Assembly: GCA_016720655.1 (NCBI GenBank) | Contig: JADKKE010000032.1 | Location: forward strand, 182,383 to 246,382 | Length of the DNA stretch: 64,000 nucleotides | Direction of reading: 5' to 3' | Source of the DNA: Bacteroidota bacterium | GTDB lineage: Bacteria > Bacteroidota > Bacteroidia > AKYH767-A > 2013-40CM-41-45 | In this document: positions 1,021 to 10,999 of the stretch, one piece after another | How positions within the stretch are numbered: position 1 is the first letter of the stretch | Layout of the letters: every line of letters starts with the position of its first letter | Notes under the pieces: model-generated | The model's input: only the letters and a program-made list of their open reading frames with translations | What the model was told of the DNA's origin: nothing | Databases searched by the model: none | Made by a program: the position numbers and the translations under genes

Positions 1021-2319
1021 TTATTTTTTAATTACTGGAATTGCTCTTTGAGTAATATTTACAAAAATTATTGCATCAAAATTATCTTTTGGTCTGATAC
1101 CCGATAGATGTTTTGGTTTTGTTAAAAAAACAGCACCGTACTCGTACATTTTTTGGAATCTTTTGTAAATTGGATTGGAAGAATTTCGTAAGTCAACAAA
1201 AAAAGAACTGAAATTAGTTTTAAAAAAATCGTCAGCAAGTTTGTGTTTTCGGTTAGCATCAACATGAAATTCTTGTAGTTTGTTGTCTTTAATAGCTTGA
1301 AAATTCCCTTCTTTAAAAACGAAACCGATGTTGTAATAATCCATATCAAAAAAACCATACAGGTATTCTCCCATACTTTTATAAACAGGAATTTTCATCG
1401 TTCTTAAATATGGAACTTTCGCAATATGTCCATTGTGTGCCCACACAAAAACCTTTGTATTTTCAAGTTCGGAAATCCATTTTATATTTTGAGCCATACA
1501 ACTGTCTCTAATATTTGGATTCGGGTTTTGAGTCATTGAAATTTGAAATAACAATAAAGTCTGTTTTAGGTTTTCAATGTTGTATTTTGCAATTAGATAT
1601 TTTTGCTTTCCACTTTTTTCGATATACAAATGTTCATTCTCTGTAAACCATGTGTCTAGAAAAGTAATTGATTGATTTATTTCTAAATCTATTTTCGAAT
1701 TTTCGCCAACCTTATCAATATTTGAAAAGTAGCTAGCAGTGCTATCATTGAGAATAGAAATTCCTTTTTTAAAGATATTGATGTTTACGCTGTCAACAGC
1801 AGTAACATAATCAGTTAAAGAATTACTCGCGCCCTTGAATGACTGGCAATCGAAGCCATAAAACTTTAATTTGTCGTTTTCAGCTTTTTGTGTATTGTAT
1901 TGTTTTATCCATTCAATAAGATCTCTTAATTCTTCTGTGTCCCAAGTCCAGAATTCCATTCCTTTCATTGCGCTTAAAACATCACCCTTACCATACAATA
2001 CATAGTCGTTTATTTTCAATGTCCCACCATAAGTCGCTTCTATGGAAAAGACTTTGTAACCACAATAGGTTGCAAGGAATTTAAACATTTTAGCTTTCAT
2101 GTTAAAAAACTCCTTTGTACCGTGTGTTGCTTCGCCCATTCCAATAACTTTTTTCTCCTTGAAGAATTTTTCAAGTGGAATTAATTCATCGATGTTTTGA
2201 GTTTCATTTGGATGAAGTGAATAGATTGTATCGCTGTGCCCTTTGATTTGAACTACAACTTGTGAAAAGCATTGACAAGAAATAAAAGCAAGAAATAAAA
2301 TGAAGAATAAAAATTTCAT
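1021..2319 (-). CDS. Erythromycin esterase (Ere/ChaN-like) family protein with signal peptide
   Basis: GMGEATHGTKEFF motif of PF05139-type esterases. The N-terminus is hydrophobic (MKFLFFILFLAFISCQ). The ORF extends to 2388, but the likely start is the internal Met at 2319. Confidence 0.55.
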   Translation of the reverse strand: MKFLFFILFLAFISCQCFSQVVVQIKGHSDTIYSLHPNETQNIDELIPLEKFFKEKKVIGMGEATHGTKEFFNMKAKMFKFLATYCGYKVFSIEATYGGTLKINDYVLYGKGDVLSAMKGMEFWTWDTEELRDLIEWIKQYNTQKAENDKLKFYGFDCQSFKGASNSLTDYVTAVDSVNINIFKKGISILNDSTASYFSNIDKVGENSKIDLEINQSITFLDTWFTENEHLYIEKSGKQKYLIAKYNIENLKQTLLLFQISMTQNPNPNIRDSCMAQNIKWISELENTKVFVWAHNGHIAKVPYLRTMKIPVYKSMGEYLYGFFDMDYYNIGFVFKEGNFQAIKDNKLQEFHVDANRKHKLADDFFKTNFSSFFVDLRNSSNPIYKRFQKMYEYGAVFLTKPKHLSGIRPKDNFDAIIFVNITQRAIPVIKK

Positions 2320-2385
2320 TAGTTGAATTTCTTTCTTTAAGATAATTGAATAAATAGAATGAAAGTGAATAGCGATAAAGGTACC

Positions 2386-2434
2386 CAATAACCTAATAAC
2401 TCAATAACTCAATAACTCAATAACCTAATAACTA
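2386..2434. repeat. AATAACY heptamer tandem array (about 7 copies), upstream of the esterase-like gene
   Basis: cccaataacctaataactcaataactcaataactcaataacctaataact. This is the same unit as at 876-974 in the same orientation, and the complement of the array at 774-826. Confidence 0.85.
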
Positions 2435-3859
2435 TTTCCTCCGTCCTTTAAGGATTCGATAAAACGACCTACTCTGAATTTCTTCCAGAGTCAGTCCGGT
2501 TACAAGTGCTTCTTCTTCCGTTATTGCTCCTGAATTCATGGCACGAAGGAAATAATTTAAAAGTCCTTGTCCGGTTGCGGCATCGTCGAAAATATCTCCG
2601 GAGAGAGTGGCTTGTGCCGCTTTGTTCACGAAATGGAAAAGTCGTGCCGCTGCATCTTCATAACTTTCGAGAAAGAAAGTATAGACAGCAGCGTAACGCA
2701 TCGGTAACTGCGCAGGATTAAGATCCCATCCCTGGTAAAAACCGTTGCGTAAAGAATGCATGGAATGTCCATAGCAGAGTTTCCATGCACGGTGAACGAT
2801 CATTTCATTTTCCTCTTGTTGTGCTAGCGTGAGCGCATCACCTTTGTGTGGACCGATCGGCATTACATTCGTTGCTCCGTCACTCAGAAAAATTCCTGTT
2901 CCTGCAAGCGCAACTTTCGTCATGTGATGAGCGAAATCACAAACCGGATGATCCATGGTTTGATATTTTGCAGTGATATTACAGGATGCTGTATAATCAT
3001 AAGTCCCAAAATGTGCAGCAACACAACGACCATTTCCAGCCATGATCAGGGAACGAAGTGGATTGATACCATCTTTGTCCATGATGGCTTGGGTTGCTTC
3101 CACCATCATTTCCATTTTCAAAATGCCGGGTGCAAGATTAAATTCTTGCTCAATAATTTCAAAAAGAGAAACAAGCGCCTGCATTTGTTCAGGGATAGTT
3201 ACTTTAGGTAACATCACCACGAAGTTCTCAGGTATTTTCCCTCCGGTTTGCTCCAATAATGTACTGAGAAAAATGTCCAGAGTTCGAATCCCTCTTTGTT
3301 TCAAATCTTCTGTGAAGGGCTTAATACGAATTCCAATGAAAGGAGAAATGGTTTTTTCTTTCATTCCTTTTGCGAGTTCCATAGCAGCAGTGACAGCTGT
3401 TGCATCTTCCTCTTCATCGGGACGATTCCCAAATCCATCTTCAAAATCAATACGAAAATCTTCAACAGCTTCGCGTTCAAGTTTTGCAATAATTTTTTTG
3501 TAAACAGTATAGGACAGCCAGGCCGGATGTTTTTTTCTTTCAGCTTCGCTCATTTTATCCAAAGTCGCAGTCAAAGCAGAAATTTTTACAGCTTCTGTTG
3601 GTAAAGTTTCATAACCTGTCAGTTCAAGCACGCGTGCAAGTACAGTAAAATCCGGAGCATAAGACTTCAAACTGCGCAAAGCAATATCTCCCATTCTTTT
3701 GGTCGAATCGGACTTAAAAAGATTCGCTCCGCCATAGACCGTGTGCACAGGTTGTCTGTCAGGTCGATCACCGGGATATGTTTTTTGAAAAACTAAATTC
3801 GCTGCCTGAAGATCGTTGAGTATTTTTTCTTTGGCTGTATTCGGGATGGAGGTTTTCAT
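2432..3859 (-). CDS. HpcH/HpaI-CitE (citrate-lyase beta / malyl-CoA lyase-like) TIM-barrel family protein, function unknown
   Basis: A D-x-E-D metal-binding-like motif (RIDFEDGFG) and an MEMMVEATQAIMDKDGINPL...AGNGRCVAAHFGTYDYTAS stretch resemble the HpcH/CitE fold. The assignment is by motif only. Confidence 0.3.
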   Translation of the reverse strand: MKTSIPNTAKEKILNDLQAANLVFQKTYPGDRPDRQPVHTVYGGANLFKSDSTKRMGDIALRSLKSYAPDFTVLARVLELTGYETLPTEAVKISALTATLDKMSEAERKKHPAWLSYTVYKKIIAKLEREAVEDFRIDFEDGFGNRPDEEEDATAVTAAMELAKGMKEKTISPFIGIRIKPFTEDLKQRGIRTLDIFLSTLLEQTGGKIPENFVVMLPKVTIPEQMQALVSLFEIIEQEFNLAPGILKMEMMVEATQAIMDKDGINPLRSLIMAGNGRCVAAHFGTYDYTASCNITAKYQTMDHPVCDFAHHMTKVALAGTGIFLSDGATNVMPIGPHKGDALTLAQQEENEMIVHRAWKLCYGHSMHSLRNGFYQGWDLNPAQLPMRYAAVYTFFLESYEDAAARLFHFVNKAAQATLSGDIFDDAATGQGLLNYFLRAMNSGAITEEEALVTGLTLEEIQSRSFYRILKGRRK

Positions 3860-3890
3860 TGAGGATGTTTAAAATCTTGTAGTAATCTTG

Positions 3891-3950
3891 CCTGGTACTT
3901 GGTACCTAAGACCTGGTACCAAGTATTAGGTATCAAGTACCAGGTGTCAA
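3891..3950. repeat. Palindromic low-complexity intergenic repeat (ggtacc / gtattaggtat / aagtaccaggt motifs)
   Basis: cctggtacttggtacctaagacctggtaccaagtattaggtatcaagtaccaggtgtc. It shares the gtattaggtatNaagtaccaggt core with the 176-bp repeats at 42685-43240. Confidence 0.8.
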
Positions 3951-3967
3951 ATCTAAGCAAATAGTTA

Positions 3968-4678
3968 TTATCTGATTAAAGAATATCCTTTCAGAAAATC
4001 CAAAAAGGCTTGACTATTTAATAACTTATAATCCTGTTCCATTCCGGGATGGGTCATGAGTTCGATGGAGTCTCCGTTGATTGTTGGATTTACAACCATA
4101 AATTTTTCCAGTCGGGCGAAATTTGGAATGTGGTTCAGTGGATTACTATGTTTTTTGAAATAGTTATTTAGTAAAGAGCGATACACTTGTTTGTGAAAAG
4201 CACTGGGATAAAGCACATTTCCCGCGACACGGATGCGAACTCCACCGAATTTTTTGGCGAGGCGCACAACAATTTTTGCAACGGGCCAATTGGTATGTTT
4301 GTGATGATGTAAATCGATGTGATGCAAAGCAATTCCGGAATTGATCAGTTTTTGAATTTGTGCATCCAGTTCTTGTTCGAGAATTTCGAGATATTTTTTA
4401 TCTGCTGTTAATCGTCCGCCGGGATAGAAAAGTTTTTTATCGCCATAAGCAGTGCGAAATGCATCCGAAACTGGTTTCCCACCATCGAGGTCAAGATGTA
4501 TTCCAAGTTTTGGTTCCAGACTTTGTCTTTTATACCATTGAACAGCTTCTTCAAAACCCGGCATTGTCACCATGACAGAAGTAGAGGAGATCAGTCCTTT
4601 TTCATAACAATCCGTGATCCTCTCGTTGGTGAGTGAATCTATTCCAAGATCGTCGGCGATGATGAGAATTTTTGTCAT
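3968..4678 (-). CDS. ChbG/HpnK (YdjC) family carbohydrate deacetylase
   Basis: N-terminal IIADDLGIDSLTNERI, an HLDLDGG motif and a paired-His motif match the YdjC-like fold. A 4-bp overlap (ATGA) with the upstream DltD-like gene suggests co-transcription. Confidence 0.55.
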   Translation of the reverse strand: MTKILIIADDLGIDSLTNERITDCYEKGLISSTSVMVTMPGFEEAVQWYKRQSLEPKLGIHLDLDGGKPVSDAFRTAYGDKKLFYPGGRLTADKKYLEILEQELDAQIQKLINSGIALHHIDLHHHKHTNWPVAKIVVRLAKKFGGVRIRVAGNVLYPSAFHKQVYRSLLNNYFKKHSNPLNHIPNFARLEKFMVVNPTINGDSIELMTHPGMEQDYKLLNSQAFLDFLKGYSLIR

Positions 4679-5763
4679 GGCTTATTGACGTCCGGCCGGG
4701 AATTACTTAGAACAAGTTTATTAAATTCTCTCGCAAGATATTTTGTATACAAAACAGCACCTTGTTCATTGAGATGTGTTTCATCGGAAGCATTTTCTAC
4801 TGCATACAAATCCGGATATTTCCTGGAATCAGCGATTTCAATTCTGTAGCGTGGATCGATATTATAGAAGACGGTTAGAATTTCTTTGTACTGCCGTGGA
4901 TCAGCCCTTGGATTCATTACGAATACAGGATAAATTCCGTTGGCAAGCAGATTCTGAATGGTAGAATTGATCTGATCAAGATAAACATGATTGTAATTCC
5001 GAATGAGCTCCGGATTTTTCTCCAGTTCTTCAAATGCTTGAGCTGAATTTATTTTCCGTGTTGTCAAACCACTCGTGTCATTCAGGAAATGAGCAAGTCC
5101 GGCATCTTCATGGGCTTCTTTCCCACTGTAACCAGCATATGTGTTGTCCATTCTAGCGATGGAATCTGTTACCATTGTTTGCCTTTTGTGATAATCATTG
5201 CGGTCGCTGATGGATCCTGCATTGAGTAAATGATCGATGTAACCAATAGTATGCGAAGAAAGAGCAGCGACTTTTACAGTTGGGGGAGAAGGGGAAGAAA
5301 GAATAGAAGCGATTGTGAATTTGAAATCGGACCAATTGTACCAATAGATCGCCCGTGCTGTATGCATGTTCTGGTAATCGATGATTTTTATTTTCGAGAG
5401 TTCGATGAAAATGTAACGTGTACCTTCTGTGTTTTCTTTGAGCACATGATCGAGCATGTAATACACTTCCGGGAAACCCATCCAATCAACACCGTAATTG
5501 AATGAATGAATGGCTAAAGTCGAATCTGTGTTCTCATTGAATACCTGAGGAACAAATCCCCGGCGCGTTGAACTGGATCCAATGAAGAGCAAATTGAATT
5601 GTGCCGGATGGGTTCGTAAATATTCCCGCTTCAAATGCAATGCATCAAAGCTATAGGACCAGGGCATTTCTCTTTCCGGTGAACGCAGGATTTTTCTCAC
5701 CGGGATGCTGAGTGCCAGTGCAAGTAGTGCAAAAAGAAATAATTTCAGGATCAGCTTTGCCAT
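4675..5763 (-). CDS. DltD/AlgX-like SGNH-fold protein with signal or anchor peptide, partner of the MBOAT
   Basis: N-terminal hydrophobic segment, LLFIGSSSTRRG (block-I-like Ser) and C-terminal DETHLNEQGA (DxxH block). It lies immediately downstream of the MBOAT, as dltD does in dlt operons. Confidence 0.45.
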   Translation of the reverse strand: MAKLILKLFLFALLALALSIPVRKILRSPEREMPWSYSFDALHLKREYLRTHPAQFNLLFIGSSSTRRGFVPQVFNENTDSTLAIHSFNYGVDWMGFPEVYYMLDHVLKENTEGTRYIFIELSKIKIIDYQNMHTARAIYWYNWSDFKFTIASILSSPSPPTVKVAALSSHTIGYIDHLLNAGSISDRNDYHKRQTMVTDSIARMDNTYAGYSGKEAHEDAGLAHFLNDTSGLTTRKINSAQAFEELEKNPELIRNYNHVYLDQINSTIQNLLANGIYPVFVMNPRADPRQYKEILTVFYNIDPRYRIEIADSRKYPDLYAVENASDETHLNEQGAVLYTKYLAREFNKLVLSNSRPDVNKP

Positions 5764-5766
5764 CGT

Positions 5767-7194
5767 CTAAAATTGAGCATAGATAAATCCTTTTCCTCCG
5801 AGGATGCCGAGGTTGAGAATGACGAGTGCAATGATTCCATAAACAGACCAGCGAATAAATGCGGGCTTACTTGTTAGTGCCTGACTGAAATTAATTTTTG
5901 GTTGATAGAATTGTAAAATTAAAAGCAACAACACGCCGCAACATGCCAGTATAAATTCAAATGGATCCAAACCAAGACTATAAAAAGAGACTAGTTTGGA
6001 TTGGTCAAGGAGATGTGTGATCACATACCAGCCTTCGCTTACTGTATTTGCTCTAACAAATGTGAAGCTTAGCAGTGTGAAAATGAACGTGATCGTCATG
6101 GTCAGGTATTTCGCTGAAAGCGGAGACATTTTCTTGAAAAATTTCTTTCTCCACTTTGCAGTTCTCAATTCATAACCCATGGCCAGACCATTAATTAAAC
6201 CCCAGGTCATAAATGTCCAGCCGACTCCGTGCCATAAGCCACTGAGGAAAAATGTAATGAAGATTGCGAAGACCATTCCCCAGTTTCCAAGATTCCTCCA
6301 TTGCAATGAAATGGGATTGTAAACATATTCATACAGCCAGGTAGACAATGAAATATGCCAGCGTTTCCAGAAGTCAGTTACCGAAGTTGCTGCAAATGGA
6401 CGATTGAAATTCTGCATGATTTCAATTCCAAGGATTTGTGAAACACCCAATGCGATGTCCATATATCCTGAAAAATCAGCATAGAGTTGCACCATGTAAA
6501 ACAAACCGGCGACCAGGAGAATGATTCCACTGTATTGTCCTGTATGATCATACACCTGACTTACGACAATTGAAAGCCTGTCGGCAATCACCAGTTTTTT
6601 AATTAATCCCCATGCAATTAATTTCAATCCGGAAACAACTCTATTGTAGTCAAACTTTTTACTCTCATACAATTGAGGAAAAATATTTCTTGGTCGGTCA
6701 ACCGGTCCCTGGATGAGTTTTGGGAAATACAGAAAATAGGTTGTGAAGACGAGAAAGTTTTTTTCTGCAGGTTCCATTTCTCGTTGGATATCTACGTTGT
6801 ATCCTATCGCCTGAAGAATGAAATAAGACAAACCAACAGGGACTAACAAATGAAGCACCGGAAGCGGATTGTGAATCCCTATACCGTTTAGAAATGAAGA
6901 AAATTCAAGGTTAAAGAAGTTGTAATATTTGAAAATAAACAATGCTCCGAGGTTGACAAGACAGCTCAGCAACAACACTGCATTTTTTCTAAGTGTTTTT
7001 TCAATCCAGATTCCGGTAAAGTAATTGCAGATGATCAGCGCAGAAAGAATTCCCAGCCCTTTAAGACTGTAAAAAGCACAAAAGACAATGGAACCAAGGA
7101 GTAACCACCAAAGCTGCAATTTTCCTTTCATCCTGAAATAAACGAGAGCAAAAAGTGTGAAGAAAACCAGAAATGTAAAGGAATTGAATACCAT
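5767..7194 (-). CDS. MBOAT family O-acyltransferase (DltB/AlgI-like)
   Basis: Multi-pass membrane protein carrying the conserved FWRRWHISLSTWL...YNP motif with the catalytic His of DltB/AlgI. Confidence 0.8.
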   Translation of the reverse strand: MVFNSFTFLVFFTLFALVYFRMKGKLQLWWLLLGSIVFCAFYSLKGLGILSALIICNYFTGIWIEKTLRKNAVLLLSCLVNLGALFIFKYYNFFNLEFSSFLNGIGIHNPLPVLHLLVPVGLSYFILQAIGYNVDIQREMEPAEKNFLVFTTYFLYFPKLIQGPVDRPRNIFPQLYESKKFDYNRVVSGLKLIAWGLIKKLVIADRLSIVVSQVYDHTGQYSGIILLVAGLFYMVQLYADFSGYMDIALGVSQILGIEIMQNFNRPFAATSVTDFWKRWHISLSTWLYEYVYNPISLQWRNLGNWGMVFAIFITFFLSGLWHGVGWTFMTWGLINGLAMGYELRTAKWRKKFFKKMSPLSAKYLTMTITFIFTLLSFTFVRANTVSEGWYVITHLLDQSKLVSFYSLGLDPFEFILACCGVLLLLILQFYQPKINFSQALTSKPAFIRWSVYGIIALVILNLGILGGKGFIYAQF

Positions 7195-7205
7195 TCTGAG
7201 ATTTA

Positions 7206-7454
7206 CTAAACCGAATGAAGTTTAGAGTGAATCATGTTAACCATGTCGCCGACATTTTTGAAACTCAAGACTTCTTTCAGTTTAAATTTTACATTGAAAT
7301 GTTTTTCCACTTCCACGATCATGGATGTATGCGTAAGCGAATCCCATCCATCAACATCGTTGGCAGTTGTATCCATTTGCAATATCACCGCATCATTCTC
7401 AAATATTTTTTTAAAAATAATAGTCAACTGATTCAAAATTTCGTTCTTATCCAT
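7206..7454 (-). CDS. Acyl/D-alanyl carrier protein (DltC-like, 82 aa)
   Basis: Small acidic protein with a DGWDSLTHTSMIVEVE phosphopantetheine-attachment motif (DSL). It sits between the adenylating enzyme and the MBOAT. Confidence 0.65.
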   Translation of the reverse strand: MDKNEILNQLTIIFKKIFENDAVILQMDTTANDVDGWDSLTHTSMIVEVEKHFNVKFKLKEVLSFKNVGDMVNMIHSKLHSV

Positions 7455-7456
7455 TT

Positions 7457-7492
7457 CTAATTTCTAATTTATAACTCATAACTCATAACTCA
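7457..7492. repeat. ATAACTC heptamer tandem repeat in the dltC-dltA intergenic spacer
   Basis: tttctaatttataactcataactcataactcactt. Confidence 0.8.
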
Positions 7493-7493
7493 C

Positions 7494-8987
7494 TTACAAA
7501 CCCGCTTGCTGCATCAACACTTTCCGATCTGTTTTTCCATTTGAATTCAAAGGGAAAACTCCAGTTCCAATAATTTTGGCAGGCAACATATAACCCGGAA
7601 TCGTGTCTTTCAGATGTTGCATCAAAGCACTGGTATTTTCTGAATAATTTTCAATAAACAAATAAATCTGCCACACGGTAGCTTCATTTTGTTTTGCAAT
7701 GGCGACGACTGCATGTGTTTTTACAAATTCTCTTGCATGCATTTCGATTTCACCAAGTTCAACACGAAACCCCTGGATCTTCACTTGAAAATCAATCCGT
7801 CCACTATAACTGATATCTCCATCTTTATCCGCAAAACAAAGATCACCTGTTCGGTAATACCGTTTCGAGCGATAGATGAAGAATGCTTCTTTATTTTTTT
7901 GTTCGTTTTTCCAATATCCCGGAGTCACTTGTCTGCCATGCAAACAAAGTTCGCCTTTTTCCATTGCATCAGCGGGTTTTCCTTCATCATTAAAAATTTC
8001 CGCTTTCATATGATTCATCTCTTGTCCAATGCAAAGAATTCCGTTCAGAGATTTATTTCCACCTTCCCGATTGATGGGATATGTTGTGCAAAATATTGTT
8101 GCTTCTGTTGGTCCGTACACGTTCAGTAATTCAGCATTTGGAATACACTTTGCCCATTCCAATGTGACATCTTCATACAACGCTTCTCCACAGAACAAAG
8201 AGTATTTCATTTTCTCCAAATGAATTTCTCCGAAGTAAGGACGCAAATGCGTAATGATGGATGGAACAAGCAGAGCAAAAGTAATTTCATGTTCTTCCAT
8301 CAGCTGATAAACCTGCATGTATTTTATTCCCTCAAAAGGAACTGTATATACACAAGCACCAATACACAGAGGAGCCATATAACTCATGATCGACAAATCA
8401 AATGTCATGTCGAACATTTGAATGAATCGATCACCTGATTCGATATCAAAACCCAAATCAAAGAATGCACTAAGGAAGGATTCAAGATTTTCAATAGTCA
8501 ATGGCACACCTTTGGGTACGCCGGTGCTTCCGGAAGTAAATAATATGTAAGCATTACGATCCGGCTCCTGTTCAATAAATGCAGGAACGGAACTTGTATC
8601 TGCAGGCAGATTCGTTTTTATCACCATTGTTGACGTGGAGGAAAAAGCATCCGCTTCTTCTTCCATTTTGCTGCTCAACAACACACGAATTTCCGCTTGT
8701 TCAAGGATGGATTCATTCCTGGATTTCGGATGCAATGGATTTATCGGAACGAATGTGTGTCCACTAAAAAGGATTGCAAACACTGAAGCATACGTTTGCA
8801 AGTCATCGTATGTCAAAATTCCGATGTTGCAATTTCCTTCAAGGCCTTTGGATTGAATCTGCTGTTGGATGTTGGCAATACAAGCTCCCAATTCTGCATA
8901 CGAATAATGAGTTCCGGCAATGCAAAAAGCCGGCTTCTCCCGTTCAACCAAAATGTTACGCAGGATTTCCTCCAGAGGATGATTCAT
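7494..8987 (-). CDS. AMP-binding adenylation enzyme (DltA-like carrier-protein ligase)
   Basis: LFTSGSTGVPKGV (A3 core), YGPTE, YRTGD and C-terminal GKTDRKVL motifs. At 497 aa it is stand-alone adenylation-domain size. Confidence 0.8.
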   Translation of the reverse strand: MNHPLEEILRNILVEREKPAFCIAGTHYSYAELGACIANIQQQIQSKGLEGNCNIGILTYDDLQTYASVFAILFSGHTFVPINPLHPKSRNESILEQAEIRVLLSSKMEEEADAFSSTSTMVIKTNLPADTSSVPAFIEQEPDRNAYILFTSGSTGVPKGVPLTIENLESFLSAFFDLGFDIESGDRFIQMFDMTFDLSIMSYMAPLCIGACVYTVPFEGIKYMQVYQLMEEHEITFALLVPSIITHLRPYFGEIHLEKMKYSLFCGEALYEDVTLEWAKCIPNAELLNVYGPTEATIFCTTYPINREGGNKSLNGILCIGQEMNHMKAEIFNDEGKPADAMEKGELCLHGRQVTPGYWKNEQKNKEAFFIYRSKRYYRTGDLCFADKDGDISYSGRIDFQVKIQGFRVELGEIEMHAREFVKTHAVVAIAKQNEATVWQIYLFIENYSENTSALMQHLKDTIPGYMLPAKIIGTGVFPLNSNGKTDRKVLMQQAGL

Positions 8988-9136
8988 ATCCCTGCAATAC
9001 GTTCAAAAAAGGGCATTGTTTCGCAGGAAAGGAAGAAAATAGCAGGAAAATTGACTTAAAAGATGCTGGATTCAGAGCTTAAGGGAAGAAAGACTCGATT
9101 TGGCTCCAAATCTATTTCTATTCTGAATGAAACCAA

Positions 9137-9478
9137 TCAACTTCCCCGATACGTTGTAAATCCATATGGACTCAGCAACAGTGGAATGTGATAATGTTTG
9201 CCATCAGAAATTTCAAAAACCAATTGAACATATGGGTAAAACCCTTTCAGTTTTTGTCGGGAAAAATAGTCGGCTGTCTCAAAAGTCATTCGGTAAATTC
9301 CGGGTGAAAGGATCACATCTGTTTTGAGTAAATCAGAAACGCGACCGTCCGCATTTGTAACTCCATTGCCTAGTGCAATCCATTCATTCAACCCCGAAAT
9401 GGTTTCAAATGTAACTTTGATTCCTTGTGCCGGACTTCCTTTTGAAGTGTCCAATACATGTGTAGTAATCTGACTCAT
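9137..9478 (-). CDS. uraH: 5-hydroxyisourate hydrolase (transthyretin-like)
   Basis: 113 aa with the HVLD... motif and the C-terminal YRGS signature. Located within the purine-catabolic cluster. Confidence 0.9.
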   Translation of the reverse strand: MSQITTHVLDTSKGSPAQGIKVTFETISGLNEWIALGNGVTNADGRVSDLLKTDVILSPGIYRMTFETADYFSRQKLKGFYPYVQLVFEISDGKHYHIPLLLSPYGFTTYRGS

Positions 9479-9978
9479 GAAAGTAATTTTTCTAAACGTA
9501 ATCGTGTTATTTTGCCTTGTTCAATGGCAGCAATTTGCAATTCTGTTTCCCGTGTATTGTGAATGCGTGCATTCAGAAGTTCGAGCATTTCTTCAGCACT
9601 TTTCCCTGTTGCACAAACGATGAAAATAAATCCAAATTTTTGCTCGTATGCTTCATTGCCACCGGCAAGCTGTTCGAGCGTTTTTTGAGAAGCGGAATTT
9701 ACTGCTGCTTGTTCATTTCCGGCTAGTTTACTGGTACTGGCAAATTTTTGTTCCAGACTTTTCAAATCGCCGATTTTAGGATGATGAGAAAATGCCTCGA
9801 ACCAATCCAGTTCAGTGGTCTCAGACCAGATTGTATCTGCTTTTTGAAATAAATCAGCCGAGCTTTTGAAGGGTGCTGATGCAAGCATTTTATCCACCCA
9901 TGCTGAGGAGCCACAGCATTTCATTAATTCTTCTTTTAACTGATCTTGTGCTAAATAATTGAGTTCTTGTAAATTCAT
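9475..9978 (-). CDS. uraD: OHCU decarboxylase (2-oxo-4-hydroxy-4-carboxy-5-ureidoimidazoline decarboxylase)
   Basis: Conserved CCGSSAW, HP(K)IG and ...LNARIHNTRETELQIAAIEQ motifs. The ORF extends to 10032, but the likely start is the MNLQELN Met at 9978. Confidence 0.85.
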   Translation of the reverse strand: MNLQELNYLAQDQLKEELMKCCGSSAWVDKMLASAPFKSSADLFQKADTIWSETTELDWFEAFSHHPKIGDLKSLEQKFASTSKLAGNEQAAVNSASQKTLEQLAGGNEAYEQKFGFIFIVCATGKSAEEMLELLNARIHNTRETELQIAAIEQGKITRLRLEKLLS

Positions 9979-9988
9979 AATGAGAAAA

Positions 9989-10999
9989 TCAGCGAATTGT
10001 TCCGAATAATCGTAAGCGACTGATACCACCATCCGGATACATGAACAATCGGATGTGTGTTATCCCATCATGGGGTAAAATTTCTTTTTCAAAAATATGT
10101 TCGTGATCCGCAGAAAGTTTTTGCCTGGGAAGAAGTTCGTTCCATGCGAATTTCCCTGACAAAATATTTTTCTCTTCGGCTTTGTAAATCGTGCAGGCTT
10201 CGATCGAACAGGAGTCAGGATAATTTCCTTTGAAATGGCAAGTGTCAACAAGGATTTTTGAAAGAGTCCCGGCATGTGCCAGACGAATAATTACCCAGTC
10301 TTTGTTGTTTGGAGTCCGGTTACGTTTTGTTTCCCAGCCATCACCCATATTTACTCCTCTTCCGGGCATCAGAAGATTGTCCATGTGTGAGAAAAACATA
10401 TCGTTGCATAAAATTGCTTTGGCTCCATTCACTGCCGAAGCAAGGTCAAGGACTTCATCTTTCTTCACAAGCGACCAGTCTTTGTGTACTTCACCATAAA
10501 CTTTTAGTCGTGCAACTCCACCATCGGGATAGATGTGTAGCTTGATGTGAGTAAAAATATCTTCTGAAGAACAAGCATAAAAATTCTGACTTCCGGGATT
10601 CAAAGGAGATTTCACGAGAATTTCTTTCCAGGAAATTTCGGATGCATCAGGATCTTTTCCTGAAGGGATGTTACATGCTTCTATGCTTGCAAAAGGAGGA
10701 TGATTCCCGAGAAAAAAATTCGTGTCGATATCGAATCCACGGATGAGTCCGGGAGTACCCAATTGTATAATACACCAGTCGTGACCTTCTATCCGTTTTC
10801 TTCTGGATTCCCATCCATCCATCCATTTGCCGCGGTCTGTGTATTTATCAGCAATGAAAATTCCTCTACCGGGTTTTATAAGATTTTCTTTTTCCGCGAA
10901 AAAATCATCGGTGCATGCTATAGCTTTTGCGCCAAGTTTCTCGGCCGCTAGATTTATAAGCTGCGTAAATGCAGGAGCATTTAGAATTTCGTTCGTCAT
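9989..10999 (-). CDS. alc: Allantoicase
   Basis: Two allantoicase repeats (DGWESRRKR... and GDGWETKRNR...) in 336 aa. Confidence 0.9.
   Translation of the reverse strand: MTNEILNAPAFTQLINLAAEKLGAKAIACTDDFFAEKENLIKPGRGIFIADKYTDRGKWMDGWESRRKRIEGHDWCIIQLGTPGLIRGFDIDTNFFLGNHPPFASIEACNIPSGKDPDASEISWKEILVKSPLNPGSQNFYACSSEDIFTHIKLHIYPDGGVARLKVYGEVHKDWSLVKKDEVLDLASAVNGAKAILCNDMFFSHMDNLLMPGRGVNMGDGWETKRNRTPNNKDWVIIRLAHAGTLSKILVDTCHFKGNYPDSCSIEACTIYKAEEKNILSGKFAWNELLPRQKLSADHEHIFEKEILPHDGITHIRLFMYPDGGISRLRLFGTIR

Follow-up and report, generated by a model that had tools for sequence, protein, structure and literature searches.

A five-gene cassette within a Bacteroidota purine operon, predicted to encode a carrier-fed MBOAT-SGNH relay for aminoacyl esters

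We identified a cassette of five closely spaced minus-strand genes at positions 3968-8987 of the 64,000-nucleotide stretch of DNA from an uncultured Bacteroidota bacterium analysed here (hereafter the window), and confirmed its ORF coordinates. Its products are an amino-acid adenylating enzyme followed by a carrier protein of 82 aa, an MBOAT, an SGNH-fold protein anchored in the membrane and a deacetylase of the YdjC family (Table 1). We favour, with moderate confidence, the reading that these genes encode a carrier-fed MBOAT-SGNH acyl relay, by which a small alpha-amino acid would be ester-linked to an envelope glycan exposed to the periplasm. The cassette is a five-gene operon that mixes parts from two known acylation systems, and it is apparently unstudied experimentally. 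Between the adenylase stop and the carrier start lie 39 nt, between the carrier stop and the start of the MBOAT gene 11 nt, and between the MBOAT and SGNH genes 3 nt; the 4-bp ATGA overlap of the YdjC and SGNH genes, described in an earlier note on this DNA, was confirmed. That note had also recognized the Dlt logic in four of these genes, namely activation, loading of a carrier, membrane crossing through an MBOAT and handover to an SGNH protein, and this was reproduced. The HMM checks it proposed (Pfam and NCBIfam) matched the AMP-binding, PP-binding, MBOAT and YdjC domains and left the Dlt equivalogs below cut-off.

Table 1. Features of the cassette and its leader (coordinates are positions in the window).
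Feature	Coordinates	Strand	Evidence
YdjC-family (carbohydrate de-N-acetylase family) protein, 236 aa, no signal peptide	3968..4678	-	Pfam YdjC PF04794
SGNH-fold protein with N-terminal membrane anchor, 362 aa	4675..5763	-	
MBOAT, 475 aa	5767..7194	-	Pfam MBOAT 86.8 bits
Carrier protein, 82 aa, phosphopantetheine attachment site Ser39 in WDSL	7206..7454	-	PP-binding 24.8 bits vs cut-off 20.8
Stand-alone amino-acid adenylating enzyme, 497 aa, DltA/AlmE-like	7494..8987	-	Pfam AMP-binding 200 bits
Conserved leader, 10-codon mini-ORF MPFFERIAGI*	8984..9016	-	Directly 5' of the adenylase gene

The A3 and A8 cores claimed for the adenylase can be read in its translation (A3 FTSGSTGVPKG and A8 GRIDFQVKIQGFRVELGEIE), as can A10 (NGKTDRK). 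Its score against the amino-acid adenylation model TIGR01733 (309.8 bits) falls just below the cut-off of 317.4, and neither the DltA equivalog TIGR01734 (276.2 bits against 559.85) nor NF003417 (290 against 476) reached its threshold; fatty-acyl ligase models score much lower. The best single-domain PDB matches are LgrA module 2 (192 bits) and DltA 3e7w (191 bits), and the pocket segment by itself is closest to the glycine-specific AlmE 4OXI and then to DltA. Asp197 and Lys485 occupy the Asp235 and Lys517 positions and are conserved in all homologs, so that, with AlmE, LgrA module 2 and DltA as top matches, the enzyme is most likely an amino-acid adenylase and not the fatty-acyl ligase that the earlier note had named as the outcome against its reading. 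The predicted pocket code, DLMLLCVIFK (D197, L198, M201, L239, L264, C266, V290, I298, F299 and K485), is invariant in the cassette clade and present in 95 of the 120 homologs. In the register assigned in this analysis, six of its ten residues match AlmE (D, L, L278, C, I and K). Presumably six of the ten match DltA as well, whose pocket residues were taken in part from a review (PMC11253843). At one position the enzyme has, in our register, an AlmE-like Leu where DltA has a smaller Thr, thought to admit the methyl group of D-Ala (PMC11253843). Based on these ten pocket residues, the predicted substrate is most likely glycine, otherwise D- or L-alanine. JGI pipelines label homologs of the enzyme 'D-alanine--poly(phosphoribitol) ligase'.

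The carrier exceeds the PP-binding cut-off, and its Ser39 is invariant among the eight orthologs, which bears out the DSL attachment site previously read in this protein. All NCBIfam ACP and DltC models scored below cut-off on it (NF003464, 23.4 bits against 68). A profile of the carrier family scores 87 bits against PDB 2lml, a structural-genomics NMR structure described as a 'putative acyl carrier protein', and aligns its WDSL site; this places the two in the same carrier family, and no DltC is found among the PDB matches of this profile at E<=1. Judged by these profiles, the carrier is a member of a distinct family, and not DltC. Its 288 metagenomic relatives nearly always have an MBOAT neighbour. 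The cassette itself is without a phosphopantetheinyl transferase gene.

The MBOAT carries the WHISL motif attributed to it earlier, since its RWHISLS and GLWHG segments align with the two DltB histidine motifs. The DltB-like core, with both motifs, covers approximately residues 117-389, and the PDB alignment to DltB 6bug ends at residue 389. It is followed by a C-terminal extension of about 85 residues, in which two hydrophobic helices, like the topology of the MBOAT as a whole, are predicted from the sequence and the published description of PatA, and the protein ends in GKGFIYAQF, the last six residues being F470-I-Y472-A-Q-F475 (codons 5770-5787). This FIYAQF tail is kept in all orthologs, and a FxYxxF-like tail occurs in 50 of the 56 carrier-linked MBOATs. 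The Tyr of the FXYXXF motif has been experimentally shown to be acylated in PatA and DltX (PMC12148441). On the DltB equivalog TIGR04091 the protein scores 144 bits against a cut-off of 375. A separate DltX microprotein was sought among ORFs of 20 aa or more near 8900-9200; neither there nor in the 149-bp region 5' of the adenylase gene or the rest of the cassette was a hydrophobic candidate found. By its motifs, the MBOAT is of the fused-shuttle type (PatA/AlgI-like) instead. PatA/AlgI-type acetyltransferases are described as acyl-CoA users without a carrier protein (PMC12148441). Unlike in these carrier-free MBOAT-SGNH relays, a carrier and an adenylase are encoded immediately upstream of the MBOAT here and are co-inherited with it, and the cargo is therefore predicted to be aminoacyl rather than acetyl.

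The fourth protein, previously described as SGNH-like and signal-anchored, indeed has an SGNH fold and an N-terminal anchor. Candidate catalytic residues are Ser64 in block I (GSS) and Asp327/His330 in block V (DETH); the Ser and the His are invariant. It found no match among curated HMMs and PDB sequences, and does not reach the DltD family (Pfam PF04914). A word-index homolog search returned only six relatives, the exhaustive profile search exposed a large family, and an alignment of seven sequences scanned against genomes yielded ten loci. The protein is a member of a large family that has no curated model and is not DltD, and it is a predicted periplasmic acyl acceptor and transferase. An SGNH4-family HMM found no matches among the partner proteins of three further loci (L099-L101), indicating that the partners there belong to other families.

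The YdjC protein matches its Pfam family at 127.4 bits (cut-off 29.7), and stays below the cut-offs of the ChbG (94 against 227) and HpnK (73 against 233) equivalogs. YdjC-family enzymes act on GlcNAc-type sugars according to the family annotation. The context comparison suggested in the earlier note bears out YdjC as a conserved partner only within the close clade of the window (L001, L002, L006, L007 and L008); it is absent from L003, L009, L010 and L016-L095, none occurs in the 80 metagenomic loci, and in L003, L009 and L010 a GNAT stands in its place. We thus regard YdjC as a clade-specific fifth gene whose product is predicted to be cytoplasmic; a role in the periplasmic transfer is speculative.

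The genes flanking the cassette belong to purine catabolism, in agreement with the earlier description of a cassette wedged into a purine-catabolic cluster, and the operon is found elsewhere without it. At one such locus (L098) the same purine operon runs from HIUase over a 276-bp gap to DUF6986, and this empty site supports an insertion of the cassette. A comparison of both junction spacers with the empty site gave only weak AT-rich local matches (scores 25-28) and no direct repeats that would mark insertion scars. Conversely, the adenylase-carrier-MBOAT-SGNH core is kept in L003, L009, L010 and L018, all outside a purine context. In the reading we favour, the five genes are a mobile unit, placed by insertion between HIUase and DUF6986 and probably co-transcribed with the purine operon. 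The CitE/HpcH-like and erythromycin-esterase-like genes, formerly taken as continuing the cassette, lie on the same strand and are not members: the former (DUF6986) is a conserved purine-operon gene that directly follows HIUase where the cassette is missing, and the latter is variable, being absent from L006 and L008. The cassette hence counts five genes, not seven.

The TGA stop of the leader overlaps the adenylase ATG. Some 40 nt at this site hardly vary among the window, L001, L002, L006, L007 and L008, whereas the remaining intergenic sequence has diverged, and L003, L010 and L018 lack the leader. No Rfam family matched positions 3700-9400 at E<=1, and the leader folds no better than its shuffles (z = +0.98). 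We rejected a CCTGC/GCAGG hairpin in the window, which is not conserved in the relatives. A scan for sigma-70 promoters and terminators gave chance-level counts and is uninformative for Bacteroidota. The leader is counted here only as a possible regulatory part.

From the observed domain identities, motifs, fold, conservation and insertion we infer the chemical steps, the amino acid and the acceptor of the relay as follows. The cytoplasmic adenylase would activate the amino acid and transfer it to the carrier, where the phosphopantetheine arm on Ser39 would bind it in thioester linkage. The MBOAT, via its conserved histidines, would then carry the aminoacyl group through the inner membrane to its own Tyr472, the fused FIYAQF motif standing in for the separate DltX microprotein of Gram-positive Dlt systems, and the membrane-anchored SGNH protein would take the group on Ser64 in the periplasm and pass it to a hydroxyl of the acceptor. 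The acceptor would probably be a GlcNAc-containing glycan, such as a surface polysaccharide, an LPS sugar or peptidoglycan. In the window's clade alone, the cytoplasmic YdjC, translationally coupled to the SGNH gene, may act on a precursor of the acceptor or on a GlcNAc compound related to it. An envelope glycan as the target, one of the two suggested in the note, is consistent with the contexts of relatives: in Aquimarina megaterium a Wzx/Wzy-type polysaccharide locus surrounds the cassette, and the SGNH partner at L101 carries fused LysM domains. Both point to a glycan acceptor, although these hints may not transfer, since neither the Aquimarina nor the LysM-locus partner is in the SGNH family of the window. 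Upstream of the L009 cassette, sugar aminotransferase-like, acetyltransferase-like and oxidoreductase-like ORFs were assigned by sequence inspection. The window's own neighbourhood offers no clue to the acceptor.

The strongest of the alternatives, though still unlikely, keeps the relay as proposed and replaces the glycan by a lipid, either lipid A or LPS core, as in the Vibrio AlmEFG system, or the head group of a membrane lipid. No solved adenylase is closer over the pocket than AlmE, AlmEFG glycylates lipid A, and a diacylglycerol kinase gene adjoins the cassette in L003 and L010. However, the five cassette products include no AlmG-type lipid A acyltransferase, the transferase module being MBOAT plus SGNH; characterized MBOAT-SGNH modules act on polymers (peptidoglycan, alginate, cellulose and teichoic acids; PMC12148441); and a polysaccharide locus, LysM domains and the GlcNAc-type sugars of the YdjC family all lean towards a glycan. 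It is very unlikely that the MBOAT and SGNH proteins form an ordinary acetyl-CoA O-acetyltransferase of the PatA/PatB or AlgI/AlgJ type beside an unrelated adenylase and carrier. The architecture of the MBOAT is indeed that of acyl-CoA users (PMC12148441), and in L011, L012, L013 and L015 the same SGNH family stands beside fused-motif MBOATs with neither adenylase nor carrier. The short spacers on both sides of the carrier gene argue against such a chance neighbourhood, as do the joint travel of the four genes across differing genomic contexts and the 80 loci found via the carrier alone, in which almost every sufficiently long contig has an adjoining MBOAT.

We give very little credence to a true Dlt system, acquired horizontally and adding D-alanine to a teichoic-acid-like or LPS polymer exactly as in Firmicutes, as has been reported for Dickeya and Pectobacterium. 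The gene order matches an A-C-B-D-like arrangement, the best NCBIfam scores include those of the DltA and DltB models, the pocket residues D197, L198 and C266 are common to DltA, and the pipeline name of the adenylase homologs speaks for it too. Bacteroidota are diderms and are not known to have teichoic acids. The Dlt analogy of the earlier note holds for the logic but fails for membership, as all Dlt equivalog models score far below their cut-offs. Mentions of dlt genes extend to a few Gram-negatives (PMC5541007). Least probable of all is another small acid as cargo, with the adenylase acting as a generic acyl-carrier ligase. The near miss on TIGR01733 would fit such an enzyme, and the same carrier class elsewhere uses FkbH-like loaders or a different AMP-binding enzyme, and is thus not restricted to amino acids. 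Here, however, both the Asp that binds the alpha-amino group and the Lys of A10 are conserved, the pocket is AlmE/DltA-like and the fatty-acyl ligase models fall far behind.

Across loci of this carrier class the loader varies: A-domains with four or more different pocket codes occur, as do FkbH-like glyceryl loaders and other AMP-ligases. We tentatively propose that the cassette typifies a widespread uncharacterized class in Gram-negatives, in which an interchangeable loader, a 2LML-type carrier, a fused-Tyr MBOAT and an SGNH-like transferase may decorate polysaccharides or peptidoglycan with aminoacyl, glyceryl and further esters other than acetyl, a chemistry so far unreported for these organisms, and which here may be wired into a purine operon via the 10-codon leader, coupling envelope charge to purine/nitrogen availability. 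If the relay we favour is correct, many Bacteroidota, Ignavibacteria and other diderms would place positively charged aminoacyl esters on their envelope glycans; where known, aminoacyl modification of the envelope bears on resistance to antimicrobial peptides, on phage adsorption and on immune recognition. From the strictly conserved pocket code follows a substrate prediction that can be tested directly, Aquimarina megaterium being a cultured carrier of the cassette. Automated 'DltA' annotations are also corrected by this analysis, and DUF6986 is placed in purine catabolism. In the literature searched, whose coverage is incomplete, we found nothing on dlt-like loci in Bacteroidota or on loader-carrier-MBOAT cassettes. 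MBOAT-SGNH systems have been divided into Dlt, with a carrier donor and a separate DltX, and all others, with acyl-CoA, a fused shuttle and no carrier (PMC12148441). Since a carrier donor and a fused shuttle are combined in the cassette and in dozens of related loci, this dichotomy appears incomplete.

The cassette thus stands between known systems. With the Dlt system of Firmicutes (DltX-DltA-DltB-DltC-DltD) it shares a stand-alone adenylase that would load a small amino acid on a dedicated carrier of about 80 aa, a similar gene order, an MBOAT with the same two histidine motifs and a predicted relay from the FXYXXF Tyr to a membrane-anchored SGNH protein. It differs in that the shuttle motif is fused to the MBOAT, with its extension of about 85 residues, rather than carried by DltX, that its SGNH protein and carrier lie outside the DltD and DltC families, that its pocket leans to AlmE (Gly), and that it has an extra YdjC gene and a diderm host. 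PatA/PatB, AlgI/AlgJ/AlgX and WssH/WssI resemble it in an MBOAT with the conserved His and a C-terminal FXYXXF and in an adjoining anchored SGNH partner, but they are described as using acyl-CoA and no carrier (PMC12148441), whereas the cassette adds an adenylase and a carrier. AlmE-AlmF-AlmG of Vibrio cholerae, which places glycine or diglycine on lipid A, aminoacylates a Gram-negative envelope, as is predicted for the cassette, and also pairs a DltA-like adenylase with a small carrier, but its AlmG is a lipid A acyltransferase of the cytoplasmic face, it has no MBOAT or SGNH protein, and its acceptor is the lipid A acyl chains.

The cassette is composed of five tightly spaced ORFs on the minus strand (positions 3968-8987 of the window; table), with spacers of 39, 11 and 3 nt and an ATGA overlap between the last two genes, SGNH and YdjC. 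The account of the DNA itself in the earlier note is thus correct. The best NCBIfam model for the adenylase is TIGR01733 (amino-acid adenylation; 309.8 bits versus a cut-off of 317.4), which outscores the DltA models, and fatty-acyl ligase models score far lower. When the MBOAT was compared with solved structures, DltB was its sole match, aligned over residues 117-389 including both histidine motifs. The last ~85 residues of the MBOAT form two hydrophobic segments and end in GKGFIYAQF, and its orthologs all terminate in FIY(A/L/F)(Q/R)F.

Coordinates of the features in the window and in related loci (L numbers)
Feature	Locus	Position	Strand	Remarks
Adenylase	window	7494-8987	-	497 aa; Pfam AMP-binding, 200 bits
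Adenylase-carrier spacer	window	7455-7493	-	short tandem repeats GTTATGA GTTATGA GTTATAA ATTAGAA ATTAGAA
Carrier	window	7206-7454	-	82 aa; above PP-binding threshold
MBOAT	window	5767-7194	-	475 aa; Pfam MBOAT
SGNH protein	window	4675-5763	-	362 aa; no Pfam, NCBIfam or PDB-sequence match
YdjC-family protein	window	3968-4678	-	236 aa; Pfam YdjC
Mini-ORF leader	window	8984-9016	-	MPFFERIAG(I/V), then stop; 10 codons; TGA overlaps adenylase ATG
TTAGATTTG box (TAnnTTTG)	window	~3947-3955	-	right after YdjC stop; about 96 nt upstream of DUF6986 start
DUF6986	window	2432-3859	-	HpcH/malate-synthase-like TIM-barrel
Ere-like gene	window	1021-2388	-	far below EreA/B/D cut-offs
DUF6986	L096 (Paraflavisolibacter sp. 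H34)	9001-10437
DUF6986	L097	9001-10434
DUF6986	L098	9001-10428
GNAT gene	L003	5669-6334
GNAT gene	L009	4561-5226, 5532-6197
GNAT gene	L010	5563-6234
GNAT gene	L018	~1621-2268
GNAT gene	L058	~6333-6977
GNAT gene	L101	10510-11166
FkbH_N proteins	L031, L039, L046, L049			immediately upstream of carrier at ~7001
Other loader/upstream gene	L040	5226-6989
Other loader/upstream gene	L095	5172-6988
Adenylase, in two pieces	L001	6766-8257		380 + 139 aa
Aquimarina megaterium cassette	L099	8001-12144
SGNH partner fused to LysM domains	L101	12925-14679

We collected relatives of the SGNH protein by exact-protein look-up and a genome scan, followed by tblastn mapping. The five close relatives (L001, L002, L006, L007 and L008; at least 73% identity) harbor, wherever the contig reaches, the purine genes, adenylase, carrier, MBOAT, SGNH, YdjC, DUF6986 and XdhC, always in this order. 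The closest of these loci, L001 (Bacteroidetes MAG GCA_016718125.1), is 98-100% identical to the window; its adenylase is called as two pieces, which is a frameshift or assembly error in the MAG, the ORF of the window being intact. Relatives with 40-49% identity (L003, L009 and L010, plus L018 from the metagenome scan) retain adenylase, carrier, MBOAT and SGNH in different genomic contexts, without YdjC, DUF6986 or purine genes. Since these four genes stay together across contexts, the four-gene core is the functional unit, and YdjC is a clade-specific addition to it. The more distant cassettes also contain a conserved GNAT acetyltransferase of ~220 aa between adenylase and carrier, the GNAT-carrier pair being present twice in L009, and this enzyme may act on the carrier-bound amino acid by N-acylation or extension; the window clade has no GNAT, and instead has YdjC, of a deacetylase family, at the opposite end. 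At 20-31% identity (Bacteroidetes, Microscillaceae, Phycisphaerales and Anaerolineae), the MBOAT-SGNH pair occurs alone with the C-terminal motif kept in the MBOAT, and the SGNH family thus also works with MBOATs that are presumably fed by acyl-CoA.

The two downstream genes, which the earlier note had described as continuing the same strand run, do not belong to the cassette. DUF6986, the CitE/HpcH-like gene, is highly conserved in Bacteroidota, has thousands of highly conserved homologs and lies directly downstream of HIUase within the purine-catabolic clusters of three cassette-free genomes; it is named 'phosphoenolpyruvate kinase' or 'citrate lyase beta' in some sources, and may carry out a step of ureide or glyoxylate metabolism that has gone unrecognised. 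The erythromycin-esterase-like gene is present in L001 and missing from L006 and L008, and is therefore a variable neighbour; its start is probably the internal MKFLFFILFLAFISC..., which has the look of a lipoprotein-type signal, and not the upstream TTG. In L098, the order is XDH, urate oxidase, allantoinase, allantoicase, OHCU decarboxylase, HIUase, a 276-bp gap, DUF6986 and XdhC. Apart from the Ere-like gene and the five genes of the cassette, all absent from L098, the window has the same order. The cassette has thus been inserted between HIUase and DUF6986, and comparison of the window with this empty site revealed no recognisable insertion scar at the junctions.

In the purine-inserted clade alone, a segment of ~40 nt next to the adenylase ATG is nearly unchanged among genomes, and the remaining spacer has diverged. 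This segment reads as a mini-ORF leader found at the same position in all five close relatives, whose few substitutions are CCC to CCT (synonymous), ATA to GTA (Ile to Val) and GCA to GGA (Ala to Gly); it has no Rfam match, and its folding energy is not unusual. Instead of this leader, the more distant Bacteroidota cassettes carry an upstream TAATTTTG box, which resembles the Bacteroidota -7 promoter consensus TAnnTTTG. The conserved TTAGATTTG box after YdjC, also found in L006 and L007 and likewise similar to the -7 consensus, is followed in the window by an inverted repeat, CCTGGTAC...GTACCAGG, and is possibly a promoter from which DUF6986 is again expressed despite the insertion.

Among single-domain matches in PDB, the adenylase scores highest with module 2 of LgrA (192 bits), the glycine-activating module, and with DltA (191 bits). 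For its pocket segment, the best PDB match is 4OXI, the Vibrio cholerae glycine adenylase AlmE with Gly-AMP bound (PMC11253843). We read the ten specificity positions in GrsA numbering, with the register checked on alignments with AlmE and TycA, and obtained the code D-L-M-L-L-C-V-I-F-K, in which Asp235 and Lys517 indicate an alpha-amino acid substrate. The code keeps the D, L and C that make the C-alpha/methyl contacts in AlmE (D247, L248, C316) and DltA (D197, L198, C269) (PMC11253843). Where AlmE has a Leu beside L248, DltA has the smaller Thr, giving space to the methyl group of D-Ala (PMC11253843); because the window has Leu (L239) at this place, taken as position 278 on our register, we would favour glycine as the substrate, or else D- or L-alanine. 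All cassette orthologs, of which the most distant are 58% identical, have this same code, as do 95 of the 120 top-ranking homologs in the database, which argues for a single conserved substrate. Other carrier-linked cassettes keep the Asp and Lys with differing codes (DMQSFALIYK, DFAPYCFVFK and DVASITFVWK). Automated pipelines label many of the adenylases 'D-alanine--poly(phosphoribitol) ligase'.

Ser39 of the carrier, in W(D/T)SL, is invariant. Against PDB, the carrier-family profile matched 2LML with 87 bits, followed by weak generic ACP matches only, and DltC gave no match at E<=1. 2LML, deposited by structural genomics as a 'putative acyl carrier protein', clearly belongs to the family, so that the carrier component already has a solved structure. 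Used as a probe on metagenome contigs, the family recovered 288 relatives, from which we retained 80 loci; the MBOAT adjoins the carrier in nearly all of those contigs that are long enough, and, counting every fetched locus, 50 of the 56 complete MBOAT ORFs have an FxYxxF-like tail. The loader upstream of the carrier varies among the same A-domain type (38-58% identity), a much more divergent AMP-binding enzyme and an FkbH_N protein. Where loci other than those with the A-domain type have the carrier next to a fused-motif MBOAT, the genes ahead of it encode FkbH-like loaders, a different AMP-binding enzyme of 587 aa, or a polysaccharide deacetylase together with an AT3 acyltransferase. FkbH enzymes put glyceryl units onto ACPs. 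These results suggest a modular class made of a loader, a carrier, an MBOAT with FxYxxF and an SGNH-like partner, which may carry non-amino-acid cargo too. Our literature search found no description of such a class, and an earlier mention is possible. The SGNH protein of the window belongs to a family of 2666 cluster representatives at E<=1e-3 in an exhaustive profile search, which is covered by no curated model; its members show weak, scattered matches to DUF459, SGNH, GDSL_2, DHHW and DUF1574, which are families of the SGNH clan, and none to DltD.

Since the neighbourhood in the window is uninformative as to the acceptor, we took hints from relatives. A polysaccharide locus of the Wzx/Wzy type surrounds the cassette of the cultured flavobacterium Aquimarina megaterium (GCA_000520975.1), which consists of an adenylase ortholog (50% identity; code DLVLLCVIFK), a carrier, an MBOAT ending in TFIYFQF and a 310-aa protein. 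The SGNH partner in L101 has LysM domains fused to it, and such domains bind glycans that contain GlcNAc, peptidoglycan among them. In L100, the adenylase adjoins an enzyme of the MR_MLE family and a peptidase of the NlpC/P60 type. By family annotation, YdjC enzymes deacetylate GlcNAc-type substrates, and the YdjC protein of the window scores below the cut-offs of the ChbG and HpnK models. Taken together, these hints favour a GlcNAc-containing envelope glycan as the putative acceptor; they are indirect, because the partner proteins in the Aquimarina, L100 and L101 loci belong to other families than the SGNH protein of the window, and lipid A or another lipid, as for AlmEFG, is a live rival to the glycan. 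The Aquimarina and LysM loci could help to find the acceptor and to set up an experimental system.

The observation holds, and the functional intuition of the earlier note, which had proposed a Dlt-like cassette, was largely right, but the Dlt label fails by every membership criterion that we tested. The most fitting description of the locus is an MBOAT-SGNH aminoacylation cassette of the fused-shuttle type, fed by a carrier protein, which has a clade-specific YdjC and is inserted in a purine operon, and our literature search found no experimentally characterised member of this type. In the Dlt system, D-Ala goes from DltC to the FXYXXF tyrosine of a separate microprotein, DltX (PMC12148441), and the window contains no DltX-like ORF. 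In PatA, AlgI and other bacterial MBOATs, FXYXXF is part of the MBOAT itself, where two additional TM helices carry it at the C-terminus; in PatA its Tyr is auto-acetylated from acetyl-CoA, and these systems 'lack a similar carrier protein' (PMC12148441). The FIYAQF tail of the window MBOAT is of the PatA type (FIYANF in NgPatA), but, unlike in that type, adenylase and carrier genes lie ahead of the MBOAT gene.
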